Shown here piece by piece: positions 2,595 through 28,404 of a stretch of 32,000 bases of DNA. Position numbers and translations under genes: made by a program. The stretch is from Haloquadratum walsbyi C23 (lineage in GTDB: Archaea > Halobacteriota > Halobacteria > Halobacteriales > Haloferacaceae): assembly GCF_000237865.1 (NCBI RefSeq), contig NC_017459.1, positions 2,940,001 to 2,972,000 on the forward strand, in the 5' to 3' direction. The notes beneath the pieces were generated by a model. The model worked only from the letters and a program-made list of their open reading frames with translations. It was not told the origin of the DNA and searched no databases. Every line of letters starts with the position of its first letter. Within the stretch, counting starts at the first letter, position 1.

Positions 2595-2833
2595 ACGTTC
2601 GATACCCGAGCAAGCGGGAAGTATCTTCCTACTTTCGGGTTTGCCTTGAGACAACACTTGAATACAGTCCCATCGCAAATACAGCATTATCTGATGTTGG
2701 CTTCCGTGTCAGCTACCCAGCGCTGCAGTACTTCATGAAACATTTTGAACCATCGGTCCTATGCAGCAGTATCAGCAGCTACTCTATGCCAAGATTTTGA
2801 ATTGAATTCCTCAATAAGTTTTCAGGAACATTA

Positions 2834-2942
2834 AAGCGCTGGGCTTGTCGGTGGACTCCCGTTCTACCGATACGTAGTAGGTGTCGGACGCCACTTCAGT
2901 AGCGTTCACGGTCATGATCCCCGACTTCAGGGCGTACTGACA
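2834..2942 (+). repeat. Degenerate IS1341-type right-end (omega-RNA-like) fragment
   Basis: aagcgctggg..gtcggtggact.. resembles 14427-14470 downstream of tnpB copy 2 (acgcgctgga..ctcggtggcaat). It ends in a decayed hairpin unit, gatCCCCGACttcaGGGCGTACtgaca (2916-2942). Confidence 0.3.
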
Positions 2943-2954
2943 GAACGCCCCTCC

Positions 2955-3222
2955 AGCCCTGTCTCTTACCCACAACTCGAGTCAGGATTTCAGCGGAACG
3001 GGATCGGGATCGGCGAGCACGACTGAAATCCTCGGTATCTACAGTTTCAACACCTCTTTGGAACAATTGTAGTGGGCTTGATTACCGGCGTTCGGTCACC
3101 CCTACAGCCGATATCACTGTCTGAATCGCTTCTCGCCTCGATTTTTTGCGTTCAAAATACCTCTGAGAGTGTCTGAAACGTCCGGTTACGACCCCACGAA
3201 CTTGTGGGTAAGAGACAGGGCT
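2955..3222. mobile_element. 268-bp MITE-like element with perfect 21-bp terminal inverted repeats and an interior derived from a truncated tnpB element
   Basis: 2955-2975 agccctgtctcttacccacaa is the exact reverse complement of 3202-3222. On the minus strand, 3218->3172 matches 12488-12534 at 43/47 positions. The interior at about 3127-3160 resembles tnpB1 coding sequence at about 12554-12590. An internal hairpin aggatttcag/ctgaaatcct lies at about 2984-3032. Confidence 0.7.
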
Positions 3223-3794
3223 AAAGCCGGTGGGCTTCCGCGCTGTATATCGTGTGAACGCAGAGGAACCCGGCGCGTGAGTGGTGGAGATTTCAGGTTT
3301 GTAGTCCTATCAAACTCTGACATGGTGAGACTCCATGCCGGGTTCACGGACTGTGGCAGTCGGGACTGGGACTACTTGGGGTGCTGAGCGCCTGGTACTC
3401 CTATCCTCAATCGTGTTCGGACTCCCAGAGTTGATTTTACTCTAGAAGTCCGACAGACTTCGACGGACTCGGAGTTACTTCCTTGATGCGTGCAATAATC
3501 AATCCCATGCCGATTATGTGAGAATCGGGCGGTCGCCGACTGGTTTCGATTATTGCTTTGATGCGTGGAGCGGCAAAACCGCCATTATAGGACGATGTAG
3601 AATCACTCTATTCTCACCTGATTCCTACTTTTGAATGGAATTGTCTGCTAATTGAAATTATAAATCAAGAATATCGGACAGGTGTCGAAACATGGACTGG
3701 TTCCATATTGTCAGGTTCATTTTGCGGTACCGAGGTCGGTGGTCTCGTTCGCATTGCTTCGTTCAACATGTCGTAACTGTGGGTACCAGAAATC
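3223..3794 (-). mobile_element. About 0.57-kb tnpB-less IS1341-derived element (omega-RNA-like body), decayed
   Basis: The minus strand starts with a degenerate copy of the shared terminus (3794->3775 gatttctggtacccacagtt). The body is collinear by eye with 23617-23863 (shared 16-mer ggactcggagttactt at 3464-3479 and 23848-23863; caggtttg / gactcc blocks). It ends in a decayed RE hairpin at about 3236-3275. Confidence 0.4.
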
Positions 3795-3879
3795 TGCAAT
3801 TCTGTGGACGGCGAAAGTCATAATTATTCTCATCGAATTTATATGTATCATAATGTTCGACAATCACAGCGAATTATGA

Positions 3880-4560
3880 CTATTCGCTGGTGATAGATTC
3901 GAGATACCCGAGCGTATCTTCGATCCGAGTTAATTCAGGACCAGTCGTATCCTCGCCAACGACATATCCGGTTTGTCCGGCAACAATACCGGACCCGACA
4001 AGTGGTGCACCGTAATTGACTGTTCCAATATCAGCACGAACATCTAAATGGTCTTCAATTGCCTCGAGTTCGGGTTCACGTGCTTTAGGATGACAGAGAA
4101 CACCACGATTTGTTGCTACTGCAGCGGTTCCTACGGTGCGAACATCTGCAAGCTTGCCGCGGGCAACTGGAACATTAAGTGCGGATTCAACACTCTCGAC
4201 AGCTTCTGTGGAGAGATCAGGATGGACATATGCGCCATAGTCATTCGCAAGGATAACATTGCCAGCAGCATTAATTCGACCAGGAAGTTCGGTAACTGAG
4301 ACAGAGGCCGTTGTTTCAATCGCCTCCTTTTCACGCATTGTTACATTGCTTGTGACGAGGATTCCATTTTCATTTCCAGTTGCAAGCGCCCCAACAGTTC
4401 CAGAGCCACCAATTGTCGTTGCAACGGCTGGGATATCGAGTTCGGCTGCCATTGCATCAGCGGTGTCATCATCTACATCAGAGCGGAGAAGAAGCACATC
4501 ATCGGTCGCACGCGCGAAGACGCCAACATATGGCGACCCGGCGAAAGAGGCACGAAGCAC
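3880..4560 (-). CDS. eif6: Translation initiation factor 6 (aIF6)
   Basis: A GTG start at 4560, 1 nt after the rpl31e stop, gives 226 aa: (M)[54 protein letters not shown]. This is the typical aIF6 repeat pattern. The longer ORF-track start would overlap rpl31e. Confidence 0.9.
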
Positions 4561-6608: not shown

Positions 6609-7892
6609 ATGGGAACACAAGAGCAGAAAGCGTATCCGATAGACATTCCGAGTGTCCGCGGGGACTTTCCAATCCTCGACCGAAAGGTTGGGGGGGACAT
6701 CGAAACGCCGGGTCCAAGTCCTGATGATACCGATCCACTTGTTTATCTTGACAATGCAGCAACAAGTCAAACGCCAACAGACGTTGTTGAGGCCCTCACA
6801 GAGTACTATTATCAATACAACTCAAATGTCCATCGAGGGATCCATCATCTAAGTCAGGAAGCTTCAGTCGCATACGAGGTCGCACATGACCGTGTTGCTG
6901 AGTTTATTGGCGCTGATGGACGCGAGGAGATCATTTTCACAAAGAATACAACAGAATCAATGAATCTTGTCGCTTACGCATGGGGGCTTGCGGAGTTGGA
7001 ACCCGGAGATACTGTTGTGCTCTCTGAGATGGAACATCATGCATCACTTGTCACTTGGCAGCAAATCGCAAAGCGAACCGGTGCGAATGTTGAGTATATT
7101 CGTGTTGATGAAGATGGCTATCTTGATATGGAACATGCACGTGAGTTAATTGATGACTCAATAGCAATGGTGTCCGTTGTGCATATTTCAAATACGCTTG
7201 GGACAGTAACACCAGTTGAAGAGTTGGCAGAGCTCACACACGACCATGGTGGATATATCTTTATTGATGGCGCACAGTCAGCACCAACGCGACCAGTCGA
7301 TGTCGATGCGATGGACACAGATTTCTTTGCGTTCTCTGGACACAAGATGCTTGGACCGACGGGAATTGGGGTTCTCTACGGCAAACAGGAAATTCTCGAG
7401 TCTATGGAACCATACCTCTATGGCGGGGAGATGATCAGGCGAGTTACATACGAAGACTCGACATGGGAGGACCTGCCCTGGAAGTTTGAGGCTGGAACAC
7501 CTGTTATTGCACAGGCAATTGGGCTTCATGCTGCAATTGATTATCTTGAGGATATTGGGATGGAGACAGTTCAAGCACACGAGGAGTTACTCGCTGAATA
7601 CGCCTATAATCAACTATCTGCATTTGATGATGTCGAAACATATGGTCCACCAGGCGGCGACCGTGGCGGGCTTGTTGCATTCAATCTTGAGGGAGTCCAT
7701 GCGCATGACCTCTCGAGCATCCTCAATGAGTATGGAGTTGCAATCAGAGCCGGTGATCACTGCACGCAACCACTTCATGACAAAATTGGTGTACCGGCTT
7801 CAACGCGAGCCTCATTCTACATATATAATACACGTGAAGAGATTGACGAGCTTGTCACTGCGGTTGATGCTGCACGGGAACTATTTGCCTAA
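6609..7892 (+). CDS. sufS: Cysteine desulfurase, SufS type (class V aminotransferase)
   Basis: 427 aa. Motifs: NVHRGIHHLS, FSGHKMLGPTGIGVLYG (PLP lysine) and RAGDHCTQPLH (catalytic Cys loop). Confidence 0.92.
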   Translation: MGTQEQKAYPIDIPSVRGDFPILDRKVGGDIETPGPSPDDTDPLVYLDNAATSQTPTDVVEALTEYYYQYNSNVHRGIHHLSQEASVAYEVAHDRVAEFIGADGREEIIFTKNTTESMNLVAYAWGLAELEPGDTVVLSEMEHHASLVTWQQIAKRTGANVEYIRVDEDGYLDMEHARELIDDSIAMVSVVHISNTLGTVTPVEELAELTHDHGGYIFIDGAQSAPTRPVDVDAMDTDFFAFSGHKMLGPTGIGVLYGKQEILESMEPYLYGGEMIRRVTYEDSTWEDLPWKFEAGTPVIAQAIGLHAAIDYLEDIGMETVQAHEELLAEYAYNQLSAFDDVETYGPPGGDRGGLVAFNLEGVHAHDLSSILNEYGVAIRAGDHCTQPLHDKIGVPASTRASFYIYNTREEIDELVTAVDAARELFA

Positions 7893-8021
7893 TGGCGACA
7901 GATGAACTCAAGACACACAGGCGTCTTAATTACTGATAACTGACGTCATTTGCACCACGAAATACGATTATCGGTACAACAAAATCAGCAATTAGCGGAA
8001 CGTTTTTGCAGCACACAGCTG

Positions 8022-8032
8022 TATATATTATA
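8022..8032 (+). promoter_or_regulatory. TATA box for sufU (leaderless geometry)
   Basis: tatatattata lies 22-32 nt upstream of the ATG at 8054. It is too close to the alternative starts at 8006 and 8036 to serve them. Confidence 0.4.
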
Positions 8033-8053
8033 ACAATGGGACTAGGATCAGAT

Positions 8054-8452
8054 ATGTATCGTCAACAGATTCTCGATCATTACAAGAATCCTCGAAACAA
8101 GGGTGAGATACCTGATCCGGACTTCTCACATACCGGCGAGAATCCGTCATGTGGCGATACCATCACTGTGAACGTGCAATTGAAAGATGATAATGAAACA
8201 ATCGAATATGTGAGCTTTACAGGGGATGGATGTGCGATTAGTCAGGCATCAGCATCTATGCTTTCAGAGCATTTACAGGGAATGACGTTAGAGGAGCTTG
8301 ACACGCTTGATACTGATGATGTGACAGAGATGCTTGGTGTTGATATCTCACCAATGCGAATCAAATGTGCGGTTCTTGCACGACAGGTTGCACAGGATGG
8401 AGCAGCCATACATGATGGTGAAATAGCGATTGAAGCAACGACGGTCGAGTAA
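8054..8452 (+). CDS. sufU: Fe-S cluster assembly scaffold / sulfur acceptor, SufU(IscU/NifU-like)
   Basis: MYRQQILDHYKNPRNKG.., GENPSCGD, GDGCAISQASASM, RIKCAVLA are SufU-type motifs. The start was chosen at 8054 from the family N-terminus and TATA spacing; 8036 is possible. Confidence 0.85.
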   Translation: MYRQQILDHYKNPRNKGEIPDPDFSHTGENPSCGDTITVNVQLKDDNETIEYVSFTGDGCAISQASASMLSEHLQGMTLEELDTLDTDDVTEMLGVDISPMRIKCAVLARQVAQDGAAIHDGEIAIEATTVE

Positions 8453-8490
8453 AAACTCAATTCAATTCGAATTATATCCGATAAGCAGGC

Positions 8491-8526
8491 GAAAAACCTC
8501 GCCCTTCAGGGCGGGGAAGATGTCAA
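8491..8526 (+). repeat. Solitary RE-type hairpin unit (R-unit) in the sufU 3' region
   Basis: gaaaaaCCTCGCCCttcaGGGCGGGGaagatgtcaa: an 8-bp stem, ttca loop and GATGTCAA tail. The architecture matches the terminal hairpin of the tnpB element at 14535-14569. It starts 39 nt after the sufU stop, on the same strand. Confidence 0.6.
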
Positions 8527-8618
8527 ATCATCATATTCCGTACTTACATTCATCTCAATAACTATGAACAGTATCGGGCATTTTCAGTGATCATTTCAAT
8601 AAGAGACTTACAACGGTA

Positions 8619-8644: not shown

Positions 8645-9159
8645 CTGTCTTTTACGCACAAGTTGTCCCGACGAGATGGACGGGGTGAAGCGGTGAAAAT
8701 TGCTCCCATTGTCGGGAGTTGGGAATCTCATCTTAAGTAACCGGGTATGCTGACGACGAGTTGACCCGGCTTGAGTAGTCCCTGTGACCCAATCGGTAAT
8801 CCCGGTTGGCGCCTTATGATGATACACTCATCTGTAGCAGTCGGTACCTGCGGAATATCTGGATTAGAACTGTCCGAGTGACAAACTGACACCTGCGATC
8901 AGAGGGGTCAAAACACCGGGTATTCGCTTCTACAGATGAGCGTGGTGATTAATTCAAATAGTTTCACCGGCGGTGTCGAATGACGCGAATTCAGCGGCTC
9001 CCATCACCGATACGGATAATCACGGCGGTTAAGACTAAGACTTAGACTTGGACTAATCGCTATCAGTCCGTCAGGATTTGTCTCAGACCCTGCTTGAAAG
9101 CGGCTAAAACGTCACGTTGGGATGCTGTGGACTTATGAGTAAAAGTCAGGATTTCAGTC
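8645..9159 (+). mobile_element. 515-bp MITE-like element with imperfect 19-nt terminal inverted repeats and an omega-RNA-like interior
   Basis: Left end ctgtcttttacgcacaagt (8645-8663). Right end 9141-9159 acttatgagtaaaagtcag, whose reverse complement ctgacttttactcataagt matches at 15/19. The interior has blocks shared with 23617-23863(-) and with the tnpB2 3' region (9005-9028 vs 14439-14463). An internal 12-bp inverted repeat actcatctgtag/ctacagatgag lies at about 8825 and 8931. Confidence 0.6.
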
Positions 9160-9160
9160 G

Positions 9161-9184
9161 TGGGAGGAGGTCAATTGAAGTCAT
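9161..9184 (+). repeat. 3' half of the split R-unit
   Basis: atttcaGTCGTGGGaggaggtcaa aligns with ttcaATCGTGGGagaagtca (15841-15860). GTCGTGGG pairs with CCCGCGA(t) at 8631-8638. Confidence 0.5.
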
Positions 9185-12407: not shown

Positions 12408-12536
12408 ATATGCAATACGTGTTGAACGTAATAAACGGTGTCGCAGATGGATTACAGAAGTTCAAGGAGAAAGCCCTCCCTTGAGGTCTGTCTTTTACAC
12501 ATAAGTTCGTGGAGTCGTAACCGGACGTTTCAGAGT

Positions 12537-13433
12537 ATGACGTTTTCGCAGTCTGGCTTCGAACTCAAAAACACGAGTGACCGACACGCGACAATCTGGC
12601 TCTCCAAAATCGGAGACATCCCGATCCGCTACCACCGCGAAATCCCTGACGAAGCGGACATCAAAGAAGTTACCGTCAAGAAGGAAACAACCGGTAAGTG
12701 GTTCGTCTGCTTCGGGCTCGAAACCGACGACGCTGACCTTCCTGAGAAACCCGACGTGGAGTCTCTCAACACAACCAACAGCGTTGGGATTGATCTCGGT
12801 AGTCTCAATTACATCTACACAACCGATGGGAAGACCGTGGATTGGCTTGATCTCGAAGACGACTACGAGCGATCGCGCCGCGAACAACGCAAACTCTCAC
12901 GGAAGCAGAAAGGGTCGAACAACTACGAGAAACAACGGCGAGAAGTAGCGAAGCTGAAGCGGCACATCCGTCGGACAGTGTTGGACTACCAGCACAAAAT
13001 AACGACGTGGCTCGTCCGTGAGTACGACGCGGTGTTCGTCGAGGACTTGGACGTAAAGGGAATGTTGGAGCAGTCGCACAATGCTCGCAACAAGCAAGAT
13101 GCAGCGTGGCGACAGTTCATTACACTGCTCGAGTATAAGGCCGGTCTGTACGGCTGTCACGTCGTGCAGATCAAACCAGAGGGAACGACGAAAGAATGTG
13201 CGTCGTGTGGTGTAGAAACAGCAAAACCGATTTGGGTACGTGAACACTCCTGCCCGTCATGTGGGTTTGAGTGTGATCGTGACGCGAATGCGGCGATGAA
13301 TGTCCTGCAACGCGGTTTTTTTGAAGTAGGGCTGGAATGGCCCGAAGACACGCCTGTGGAGACTGCGCTCCCTACGGACACCCATTCGGTGTCTGCAAAG
13401 CGCGTCATCGAAACAGGAAGCCTCGGGGCTTGA
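12537..13433 (+). pseudogene. tnpB: tnpB (OrfB/IS1341-type RNA-guided nuclease family), copy 1, N-terminally truncated
   Basis: RuvC motifs SVGIDLG, VFVEDLDVKGM and CDRDANAAMN. Zinc ribbon CASCG..CPSCG. The RuvC Asp lies only about 85 aa after the first Met, compared with about 190 in full-length TnpB, so the REC/WED N-terminal part is missing. The frame stays open upstream through the terminus to 12438. Confidence 0.8.
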
Positions 13434-13440
13434 CCCCAAG

Positions 13441-14325
13441 ACGGTTCACTCGGCTATTCAGGACCAAGCCATTCGAGAAGCGAAATCTGACCACAGCAAA
13501 GATGGGGAAGTTGAATACCGAGAGAGTCAACCGTTCGCAGTCAACAACCAGAATGGGGAGATCGACACAACCGATAACGGCACAGTCGTCATCGGATTCC
13601 CGTGTGTTTCTCAGTGGTGGTACACGCCTATTGAAGTGTACGACGATATTGCCGATTCTGTAGACCGACTGGTCGAAGGTGACGCCGACAAATCCCGTCT
13701 ACAGGTCTACGGTCGTGGCGACGACTGGTACTGTACATTCAACGCCGAGTACGATACCGACACGTCGAATGGGACATCCATCGGTGTCGATATTGGCGAA
13801 CGACATATTCTCGCTGCAACGGCTTATGATGAAGATGAGTCAATGCTGGTGTCAGGTGATGAGGCAAAGTACGTTCGGCGCAAATATCGTTCCCTACGCG
13901 ATTCGCTCCAACAAGCGGGTGCGCTTCGCGCACGCAACCGTGTGGGTGACAAAGAACAGCGTCGAATCAAGGACTTAAATCATAAACTCTCACGTCGCCT
14001 CATCACGTTCGCGGAACAGTTCAAGAATCCAGTCATCAAACTGGAAGACCTCGAAGGTATCCGCAAGAATAGCTCGTGGTCAGCCATTCACTCGTGGCAC
14101 TTCTATCAACTCCAACAGTTCATCACGTACAAAGCAGAACGTGCTGGTATCAGCGTCGAGAAGGTTGACCCGTACCGTACCAGCAAACTATGTTCAGAAT
14201 GTGGTTCAATTGGAACTCGTGATGAAGATCACTTTTTATGTTCGGAGTGTGACCGTGGACGACATGCCGACCTAAATGCTTCAGAGAATATTGCACAACG
14301 TGAGGGAGAACCATGCACGGCGTAG
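13441..14325 (+). pseudogene. tnpB: tnpB, copy 2 (different subfamily), N-terminally truncated, no start codon at the junction
   Basis: The frame is open from about 13420: ..[35 protein letters not shown]. RuvC motifs [18 protein letters not shown] and [10 protein letters not shown]. Zinc ribbon CSECG..CSECD. The ORF track starts only at GTG 13636. Confidence 0.75.
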
Positions 14326-14569
<244 letters not shown>

Positions 14570-14609
14570 TTAATTTATTGATACTCATAAGATATCGTGC
14601 AGACTGATA

Positions 14610-26991: not shown

Positions 26992-28404
26992 ATGATCCCA
27001 CTACAGATTGATGCAGGGGCAATCGCAAGTGGTGTAAACAATGTCTGGATTCTTGTTGTCTGTTTCTTAATCTTCTTCATGCAGCCTGGATTTGCGTTAT
27101 TAGAAGCCGGGCAGGTTCGAGCAAAGAACGTCGGCAATGTCTTGATGAAGAATATGACTGATTGGACGCTTGGCGTTCTTGTCTTTTTCATCGTCGGTGC
27201 TGGTGTAAGTTCGATTATCGGAATGCTGACCGCTCCTGGTACAGCACTTGATCTTGGAAGTGCATTCGCATACATCAACGATCCATCATCATACATTGGA
27301 TGGTTCTTTGGTGCAGTCTTCGCGATGACAGCCGCAACAATCGTTTCCGGCGCAGTAGCCGGTCGAATGAATTTCACTGCGTATGTTTTCGTTGCCGCAG
27401 CAATGACATCAGTTATTTATCCAGTCGTGACAGGACTCACTTGGGCTGGTGGCTTGCTCTCAGCTGATGGGTTCATTGGACTTGCACTCGGTGTCGGATA
27501 TCTTGACTTCGCTGGTGCGACTGTCGTTCATATGGTTGGCGGGCTCGCTGGGCTTGTTGGGGCAAAAATGGTTGGACCGCGTAAAACTCGGTTTGATTCG
27601 AACGGTAACTCACAACCGATCCCCGGTCATTCAATGCTTTTGGCTGTACTTGGGACGTTATTCTTGGCGTTCGGATGGTACGGATTTAATGTCGGTACAC
27701 AGGCGACTGTCCTCGCTGCTGCCGATGGGGCATTAAGCTTCAACGGTGGCGCACTTGGACAGGTCGTGTTAAATACCACCCTTGGCATGGGTGGAGGTGC
27801 AGTCGCAGCGATGATTGTTTCTGCAAGCTGGCAAGGAAAGCCTGATCCACTCTGGGCGGCTAATGGTTTGCTTGCAGGTCTTGTAGCAGTTACTGGTGCA
27901 GTGCCACACGTTACGTGGTGGGGTGGTCTCATCCTCGGTCTGATTGCTGGTGCATTGGTGCTTCCAACCTTCCGATGGGTTGTTGACTCACTCAAGATCG
28001 ATGATGTCTGTGGTGTGTTCGTGGTTCATGGAAGTGCAGGTGCCATTGGTACTATCTTGATCCCTGTTTTTGGTGTGACAGCCACTGGAGGATATGCATT
28101 CCTTGGCGTCAACCAGTTGATTATGCAGGTTGTCGGTGTGTTAGTTATTGGAACGTGGACCGTATTTGCGACGATTGCAGTCTTTGGGATTGCAAATGCA
28201 CTCTTTGGGCTTCGCGTTTCAGAAAAAGACGAAGAGCAAGGACTCGACGAGAGCGAACATGGTATTTCAGTCTACCCAGAATTTGTCCCAAGCGAGCGTC
28301 GTGAAGGTGTTGCGACTGACGGGTCTGGAGTAGAGACTGATGGTGGCGTTGATGTTGATTCAGAAACACGTTCAGATTCAAACTCGGTGAATAACGATGA
28401 GTAA
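26992..28404 (+). CDS. amt: Ammonium transporter (Amt family) with acidic C-terminal extension
   Basis: 470 aa, about 11 [33 protein letters not shown] and [17 protein letters not shown] (twin-His pore motifs). The stop overlaps the glnK start by 8 nt. Confidence 0.95.

Follow-up and report, generated by a model that had tools for sequence, protein, structure and literature searches.

The non-coding DNA between the eIF6 and rpl18Ae (rplX) genes of Haloquadratum walsbyi C23 contains a small element with inverted ends, at 2959-3218 of the window (the whole 32,000-nucleotide stretch of DNA that was analysed). The 21-nt sequence AGCCCTGTCTCTTACCCACAA at 2955-2975 recurs as an exact reverse complement at 3202-3222, with a spacer of 226 nt between the two arms, and an equal inverted match was given by none of 100 dinucleotide shuffles. 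The original prediction, which was made from the sequence alone, had described this inversion as a pair of perfect 21-bp terminal inverted repeats (TIRs). The inversion is indeed exact, but its outermost letters (AGCC...GGCT) are palindromic 10-bp target DNA that lies outside the element. The inverted ends proper to the element comprise about 17-20 nt (CTGTCTCTTACCCACAA...); they are identical to each other for 17 nt and then diverge in the same way as the left (IRL) and right (IRR) ends of the insertion sequence ISHwa2.

We read the element on the minus strand, which is the orientation in which its left end resembles the ISHwa2 IRL. The left, IRL-like terminal inverted repeat (3199-3218, minus strand; CTGTCTCTTACCCACAAGTT) agrees at 19 of 20 positions with the IRL of ISHwa2 on the chromosome of strain HBSQ001 (CTGTCTCTTACCCACAAGTC), with an uninterrupted 19-nt identity starting at the tip, and the right, IRR-like repeat (2959-2978, plus strand; CTGTCTCTTACCCACAACTC) agrees equally well (19/20) with the corresponding IRR (CTGTCTCTTACCCATAACTC). 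The IRL/IRR asymmetry of ISHwa2 (...AAGT versus ...AACTC) is thus kept in the window copy. Only the terminal 17-20 nt are inverted, and the interior is asymmetric. The single-stranded DNA fold predicted for the element is strong (-55.6 kcal/mol, z = -5.8) and is driven by pairing of the ends together with one internal hairpin at 2984-3032, whose arms AGGATTTCAG (2984-2993) and CTGAAATCCT (3023-3032) were read from the sequence and the predicted fold. This hairpin, a region that is also part of the subfamily consensus described below, includes the 15-mer AGGATTTCAGTCGTG, which recurs once elsewhere as had been noticed, although at 9148-9162 and not at 9158-9172. Stop codons close all six frames of 2959-3218, the element has no coding capacity, and no family reached its gathering score in an Rfam scan of the whole window. 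A separate repeat of about 113 bp lies nearby at 2727-2839; it is found with 88% identity in three unrelated metagenome contigs, and in size it agrees with the 'small mobile repeats' (SMR) of ~110 bp that have been reported from Haloquadratum.

Copies and target-site duplications

We scanned one genome per prokaryotic species for the end motif CTGTCTYTTACNCAYAAGTT. It was found at at least 120 loci, almost all in Halobacteria, and the genera that carry it include Natribaculum, Natrinema, Halorubrum, Halovenus, Halobellus, Natronomonas and Haloquadratum (J07HQW1 and J07HQW2), among others. The motif nearly always occurs in inverted pairs. Among the matches listed, 69 of the 76 distinct pairs are spaced by 242-268 bp; the listed matches also include five inverted pairs spaced by 1662-1663 bp and five spaced by 1537-1538 bp, the latter all from a Planctomycetaceae MAG. 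A scan of metagenomes with the motif of the Haloquadratum subfamily gave 46 stretches. Together with related loci on Haloquadratum-type contigs, these yielded 39 complete copies, which represent 29 distinct flank pairs. The copies of this subfamily range in length from 240 to 266 bp and share 87-98% identity with the subfamily consensus, the value for the window copy being 92%. Compared with Haloquadratum copies at other sites, the window copy shows 90-94% identity, and over its full 260 bp it aligns at 65-71% to MITEs from other genera, Halorubrum, Halovenus and Natronomonas among them. Because the alignment to other genera covers the whole length, the interior is DNA of this family and not local tnpB debris. 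In a search of a plasmid collection, the relatives obtained were only 67-72% identical, belonged to other genera and lay under no specific annotated feature (one was under a 'hypothetical protein' gene).

The target-site duplication (TSD) of the family is 10 bp long. Among the matches listed, it is perfect in 33 of the 76 distinct copies and has one mismatch in 6 more, and a TSD of 8, 9, 11 or 12 bp fits none of these 76. A 9-bp duplication like that of Tn5 was therefore rejected, the register being strictly 10 bp. Both flanks could be read at 28 subfamily sites, of which 7 have a perfect 10-bp duplication and 3 have one that matches at nine of ten positions. The TSD consensus, GNCTNNAGNC, is palindromic (G-N-C-T-N-N-A-G-N-C), with T4 in 39/39 and A7 in 37/39. 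It is this 10-bp register across the 76 distinct copies among the matches listed that places the boundaries of the window element at 2959 and 3218 (260 bp).

At the window site, one TSD copy (GGCTAAAGCC on the plus strand) lies at 3219-3228 and corresponds to the loop of the targeted hairpin, and a second, decayed copy (CCCTCCAGCC) lies at 2949-2958. The two copies agree at 6 of 10 positions only, the invariant T4 and A7 being kept, which argues for an old insertion. The same 6/10 match is also seen in HBSQ001 and in a further sequence (L151). In addition, at five loci and some others the two flanks of the MITE copy belong to different hairpin families, and the TSD copies agree at only 1-6 of 10 positions; these mixed flanks suggest recombination between copies or loss of one TSD copy, not simple decay.

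The element is real and is mobile as a family. For the window copy itself mobility is only a possibility. Its TSD is imperfect (6/10), and it shows no presence/absence polymorphism: in contigs located through the neighbouring gene pfdA, each of the five sequences spanning the site has the MITE, and no empty site was found among these five.

The Tn5-like partner ISHwa2 and the published MITE HqIRS35

The original prediction had proposed a search for copies with target-site duplications and for a full-length IS with the same inverted ends, setting against these the prospect of a single-copy element whose two ends no other element carries. Many copies with TSDs exist, and a full-length IS with these ends, ISHwa2, is present in the same species (HBSQ001); the element is therefore neither single-copy nor alone in its ends. 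The 1.66-kb units that share the ends contain a single 474-aa open reading frame and no tnpB. The 474-aa protein matches the IS4 family model NF033590 of NCBIfam (2.6e-118) and the domains Tnp_DNA_bind (PF14706, 1.9e-21) and DDE_Tnp_1 (PF01609, 3.5e-05). The Dimer_Tnp_Tn5 domain (PF02281) scores 2.2e-04 in the archaeal protein, which is below the gathering score, versus 2e-13 in the planctomycete relative. Furthermore, the protein aligns end to end with the Tn5 transposase structures 1MUS and 4DM0 (E ~6e-34), being homologous over its full length to the transposase of Tn5/IS50 of Escherichia coli, and its relatives in the 90% cluster include proteins named 'ISHwa2-type transposase ISHwa2' from both HBSQ001 (CAJ52575.1) and C23 (CCC40581.1).

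On the HBSQ001 chromosome, ISHwa2 is 1668 bp long (L194, 948-2615) and is flanked by a perfect 10-bp TSD (GTTTTGATGC; 938-947 and 2616-2625). Six full-length copies, this one included, have a TSD of 10 bp. The IS and the MITE are thus alike in their 10-bp TSD and in their choice of IS605-type hairpin loops. They differ in size and content, since ISHwa2 measures 1659-1668 bp and encodes a transposase of 474-476 aa, whereas the 260-bp MITE is non-coding and has an interior unrelated to that of ISHwa2 (best local score 11-12). The ISHwa2 transposase gene was found to be absent from the window by tblastn, which gave one chance match at 27529-27624 (E 0.096). Mobilisation by a DDE transposase had been one of three options put forward for this element, and it is the one borne out, with ISHwa2, a Tn5-like insertion sequence of the IS4 family (IS50 group), as the partner.

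The relationship to Tn5 is also visible in the ends. The left end of the MITE (3199-3218) agrees at 16 of 19 positions with the Tn5 outside end; the ends show 16/19 agreement with this outside end (CTGACTCTTATACACAAGT) and 15/19 with the mosaic end (Tn5 ends as given in PMC2566895). In contrast, the target duplication is 9 bp in Tn5 and 10 bp in the ISHwa2/MITE family, and Tn5 is a bacterial composite transposon, whereas the ISHwa2 family consists of single IS copies and MITEs in Archaea. A preference for palindromic targets is common to both, the Tn5 target consensus being A-GNTYWRANC-T. In the Planctomycetaceae MAG NORP218, at least five IS50-like copies of 1537-1538 bp encode a 464-aa transposase, and their terminal 20 nt, CTGTCTTTTACACATAAGTT, are also found, without change, at the end of the truncated MITE copy that lies at 12488 of the window. 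This likeness crosses the domain boundary and, as far as sequence comparison goes, would be consistent with the published idea that Bacteria were the source of ISHwa2.

The properties of the window element correspond to those of a described MITE. HqIRS35 is listed in Table S8 of Dyall-Smith et al. (2011, PLoS One, PMC3119063) as a MITE of 241-266 bp with an ITR of 16/19 and a TD of 10, with 34 copies in C23 and 36 in HBSQ001, and with 5 + 5 strain-specific insertions. Published positions of strain-specific insertions are 32662-32921 and 420734-420987 in HBSQ001 and 933374-933633 in C23. Its parent is given as ISHwa2, and it is the same as 'Duanwu' of Chen et al. (2009, Gene 436:1; reference 69 of PMC3119063), which a review describes as a 257-bp MITE of H. 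walsbyi. ISHwa2 itself is listed in the same table as a Tn5-type element of 1661-1668 bp with an ITR of 19/20 and a TD of 10-11. The window element and HqIRS35 share the species (over 1.7 kb the window is 99.5% identical to HBSQ001), the length (260 bp against 241-266 bp), the TD of 10, the TIRs held in common with ISHwa2, the presence of tens of copies and the frequent location in PATEs or IS605-type elements; by the published description no difference was found, although the TSD of the window copy has decayed. On the basis of its inverted ends, the alignments and these published properties, we assign 2959-3218 (minus strand) to HqIRS35 ('Duanwu') as a complete, non-coding copy with ISHwa2 as the parent, at a probability of about 95%; the name follows from agreement in species and parent IS as well as in size range and TD length. 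The window element is very probably an ordinary MITE that has already been published, and its preference for tnpB-element hairpins is largely published too, with 30 of 31 MITE nestings located inside PATEs or IS605-type transposons (PMC3119063).

Insertion into the hairpins of TnpB-element ends

The sequences beside the MITE ends are conserved as well. On one side they read ...TTAC(A/G)G...GAGGAGAAAGCCCAC, and on the other GTGGGAGGATGTCAA or GTGGGATGAATCCGACA. When the MITE and one copy of the TSD are removed, the two flanks join into a hairpin with an 8-bp stem, a tetraloop and an ...ATGTCAA terminus, and a hairpin of the same architecture closes tnpB2 (14530-14570) as well as a solitary 45-50-bp unit at 8480-8527. 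With up to four mismatches allowed, the first half-site accompanies 43 and the second 24 of the 84 inverted pairs among the matches listed. Insertions at right ends split the last hairpin before the ...GGGAGGATGTCAA terminus, the expected end point of the guide RNA scaffold. ISHwa2 of HBSQ001 also sits in such a hairpin (...CCCA-GTTTTGATGC-GGGG...), and insertion into a hairpin loop with a duplicated palindromic 10-mer is seen in at least 20 haloarchaeal genera. Copies with perfect TSDs occur in unrelated, non-hairpin sequence too, for example ATGTATAGAC and ATATGTACAC, so the preference for hairpins is strong but not absolute.

A longer element was also considered, in which the conserved 'class A' and 'class B' flanks would be LE and RE of a TnpB element with built-in inverted repeats. 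This reading was rejected because the same interiors occur with either flank, because the 10 nt beside each end are direct duplications and because perfect-TSD copies lie in unrelated, non-hairpin targets. The association of the MITE with PATEs and with IS200/IS605 elements (IS1341-type, TnpB) is physical only: their subterminal hairpins are the target that it prefers, so that the MITE flanks resemble the ends of TnpB elements. In their own properties the two kinds of element are distinct: IS200/IS605 elements have subterminal hairpins at both ends on the same strand and neither TIRs nor TSDs, their insertion point is next to a tetra- or pentanucleotide, and they are moved in single-stranded form by the Y1 transposase TnpA, whereas the MITE has TIRs, 10-bp TSDs across the family, hairpin halves that lie outside it and are split by it, and a DDE partner.

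The host of the window copy is a PATE-like, IS605-type-derived repeat on the minus strand. Its body and the upstream half of its terminal palindrome occupy 3229-3483 by alignment to paralogues; the body (3275-3483) is found at 69-76% identity at six other loci, and the uninterrupted paralogues end in ...CCTCCGCGTTTACGCCGAGGAGAATGTCAA. The flank ACAGCGCGGAAGCCCACC matches the 'class A' half-hairpin that adjoins many MITE copies. From alignment to the uninterrupted paralogues, the distal remainder of the host is tentatively placed at 2937-2958, where the minus strand reads GGCTGGAGGGGCGTTCTGTCAG; this remainder contains the decayed TSD and terminates in the 'terminal oligonucleotide' TGTCA(A/G). 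The host repeat may be broken by the MITE and resume at 2958-2937, the exact nesting being a tentative reading of the sequence.

Similar arrangements are found elsewhere in the window. The solitary unit of about 45-50 bp at 8480-8527 (GGCGAAAAACCTCGCCCTTCAGGGCGGGGAAGATGTCAA), just downstream of a NifU-like gene, looks like an uninterrupted 'terminal-only' PATE, in other words the empty form of the target that the MITE prefers. A 506-bp non-coding element at 8645-9150 is bounded by related sequences, with CTGTCTTTTACGCACAAGTT occupying 8645-8664 and a degenerate inverted counterpart occupying 9131-9150, sits in another IS605-type hairpin and shows no similarity to the ISHwa2 transposase. About 120 bp of its interior (its positions 179-298) are missing in many strains, which suggests a further small nested repeat. 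The 15-mer at 9148-9162 that is shared with the internal hairpin of the MITE represents a duplicated loop and stem (GATTTCAGTC-GTGGG...) abutting the degenerate right end of this 506-bp element, and one may speculate that the corresponding hairpin arm in the MITE is a captured target half.

By analogy with the biochemistry of Tn5, the DDE transposase of ISHwa2 would act in trans on the MITE, which encodes nothing. The enzyme would bind the ~19-bp ends and form a synaptic dimer, and the MITE would be excised by cut-and-paste and then integrated with a 10-bp stagger at a palindromic site. In haloarchaea, the preferred target GNCTNNAGNC is most often found where IS200/IS605-type (tnpB) elements and their gene-less derivatives, the PATEs, have the loop and upper stem of a subterminal hairpin, and the window copy landed in such a hairpin of the PATE-like repeat between the two genes. 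The 2011 description does not fully cover the precision of this targeting (the hairpin loop) or its breadth (at least 20 genera) for ISHwa2 and its MITEs; at that time, ISHwa2 was considered absent from other sequenced Archaea, save for a remnant in Natronomonas pharaonis. ISHwa2 ISs and several MITE subfamilies are now seen in many haloarchaeal genera, compared with the Haloquadratum-only view of 2011. Insertion into the end hairpins of TnpB elements is a clean natural case of one transposon targeting another, and it could be looked at afresh, since the omega RNA of TnpB nucleases is now known to be encoded by these ends. A possible but doubtful extension is that the targeting is directed by structure (an extruded hairpin or cruciform) and not by a mere match to a Tn5-like palindromic consensus, making the family a DDE transposon specialised against TnpB/omega-RNA elements. 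If this were true, the ISHwa2 family would parasitise or disable such elements.

A different question is whether the host now uses the window copy, located between eIF6 and rplX, as a structured ncRNA, a terminator or a regulatory element, or whether the family acts as an inactivator of IS605-type elements, a role that Dyall-Smith et al. (PMC3119063) proposed for SMR-A repeats. Such exaptation would agree with the strong predicted fold, with the location of family insertions in hairpins at the termini of TnpB elements and PATEs, and with the fixation of the copy in all sampled strains: four further contigs, HBSQ001 (AM180088.1, 2789494-2789753) among them, have it at the corresponding position with 99.2-99.6% identity. 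However, the neighbouring non-coding DNA is as conserved as the copy (98.8-99.6% over 1.7 kb), so that the conservation of the copy reflects low strain divergence and not selection. Moreover, the TIRs account for the fold, and the Rfam scan of the whole window matched no family. We therefore regard exaptation as very unlikely.

The tnpB1 locus and the apparent kinship with tnpB

The window contains a second, truncated HqIRS35 copy at 12488-12534 (plus strand), consisting of the first 47 nt only. It is directly joined to tnpB1 (12528-13433, plus strand), a 5'-deleted gene of 301 codons with the Pfam domains OrfB_IS605 and Cas12f1-like_TNB, whose product is intact at 408 aa in two other sequences (L135 and L139). 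At the junction, an 8-bp microhomology (GTTTCAGA, 12525-12532) links MITE nucleotide 47 to about codon 107 of tnpB1. Other H. walsbyi strains have about 945 bp between the positions that correspond to 12504 and 12527 of the window. In L139 (reverse complement of 7470-8520), a complete 253-bp HqIRS35 is present at this junction in the opposite orientation (reverse complement of 7517-7769), inserted in the hairpin GGAGAAAGCCCTG [loop] CGGGGATGAATCCGA. It is followed by about 300 bp of another remnant, then by the subterminal hairpin of tnpB1 itself (GCCCCGGGG...CCCCGGGGTTGAATCCGACA), and then by the ATG and 107 further codons of the intact 408-aa TnpB. The ~700 bp that follow the complete MITE in other strains are missing from the window, and the ~945-bp deletion is shared by the window and a further sequence (L140). 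Read from these alignments, the tnpB1 allele of the window is a microhomology deletion, of the type termed repeat-mediated in the 2011 paper (PMC3119063). Strains differ at this site in both the orientation and the completeness of the MITE, and the difference in orientation suggests that, before the deletion took place, either an inversion occurred between the inverted ends of the MITE or a MITE inserted there independently.

These findings bear on the reading with which the original prediction began, in which the window element is a miniature derived from tnpB (PATE-like, IS200/IS605) whose TIRs have evolved or been revealed, with the inverted repeat possibly as a new end structure of archaeal tnpB-only elements. 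Its main support, the match between the first 47 nt of the element on the minus strand and 12488-12534, just upstream of tnpB1, was confirmed (blastn 91.5% over 47 nt, that is, 43/47). The sequence at 12488 had been taken for the left terminus of a tnpB element, but it is a truncated copy of the same MITE, which other strains carry there in complete form, fused to a 5'-deleted tnpB; because the window allele joins MITE nucleotide 47 to tnpB1, what had been compared was one MITE with another, truncated one. In those strains the real 5' end of tnpB1 lies about 640 bp beyond and has its own subterminal hairpin and no CTGTCTC inverted repeat.

A second point in favour, a likeness of about 35 nt to tnpB1 coding DNA, shrank to a local match of 16/20 nt. 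With the whole gene as search space, 42 of 200 shuffles score as well, and the match becomes conspicuous only when that one spot is chosen in advance for the comparison (1 of 500 shuffles). In the ancestral arrangement found in other strains, the MITE and the tnpB1 stretch of this 16/20 match are about 700 bp apart. The resemblance of the flanks to TnpB-element end hairpins, the third point, concerns sequence that lies outside the element, is split by it and has its loop duplicated on both sides. As for the interior, which had been described as a shrunken tnpB, it has closed frames and aligns in full length to other MITEs, and tblastn with the full-length 408-aa TnpB1 from L139 and with TnpB2 gave no TnpB similarity in 2595-3900 (E > 1). 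Together with 10-bp TSDs and TIRs common to a DDE transposon, these results make a tnpB origin hardly credible; it would need mobile full-length tnpB elements with CTGTCTCTTACCCA inverted ends and without a Tn5-like gene.

There are two trivial reasons why the element seemed akin to tnpB. The ends of tnpB elements are the habitual neighbourhood of the MITE, and the second copy at 12488 was truncated and fused to tnpB1 by the microhomology-mediated deletion. The result removes the false lead of a tnpB element with inverted ends and supplies correct annotation boundaries. A one-off local fold-back (inverted duplication) at the window locus involving no mobile element, to which the perfect 21-bp inverted repeat and the very stable predicted hairpin would be suited, is next to impossible given that the 260-bp unit occurs at at least 29 genomic sites, each with its own 10-bp duplication, that the MITE is present in many genera and that the inversion is limited to the terminal 17-20 nt of an otherwise asymmetric unit.

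Beyond the MITE stub, the tnpB1/tnpB2 region is a conglomerate of decayed IS605-type elements. The stop codon of tnpB1 (13433-13435) is directly followed by the interior of the unrelated tnpB2, which is 27% identical and lacks its own N-terminus. The tnpB2 region extends over 13435-14570, with its right end recognisable at 14530-14570, and in L140 a further deletion joins position 12901 to 13984.
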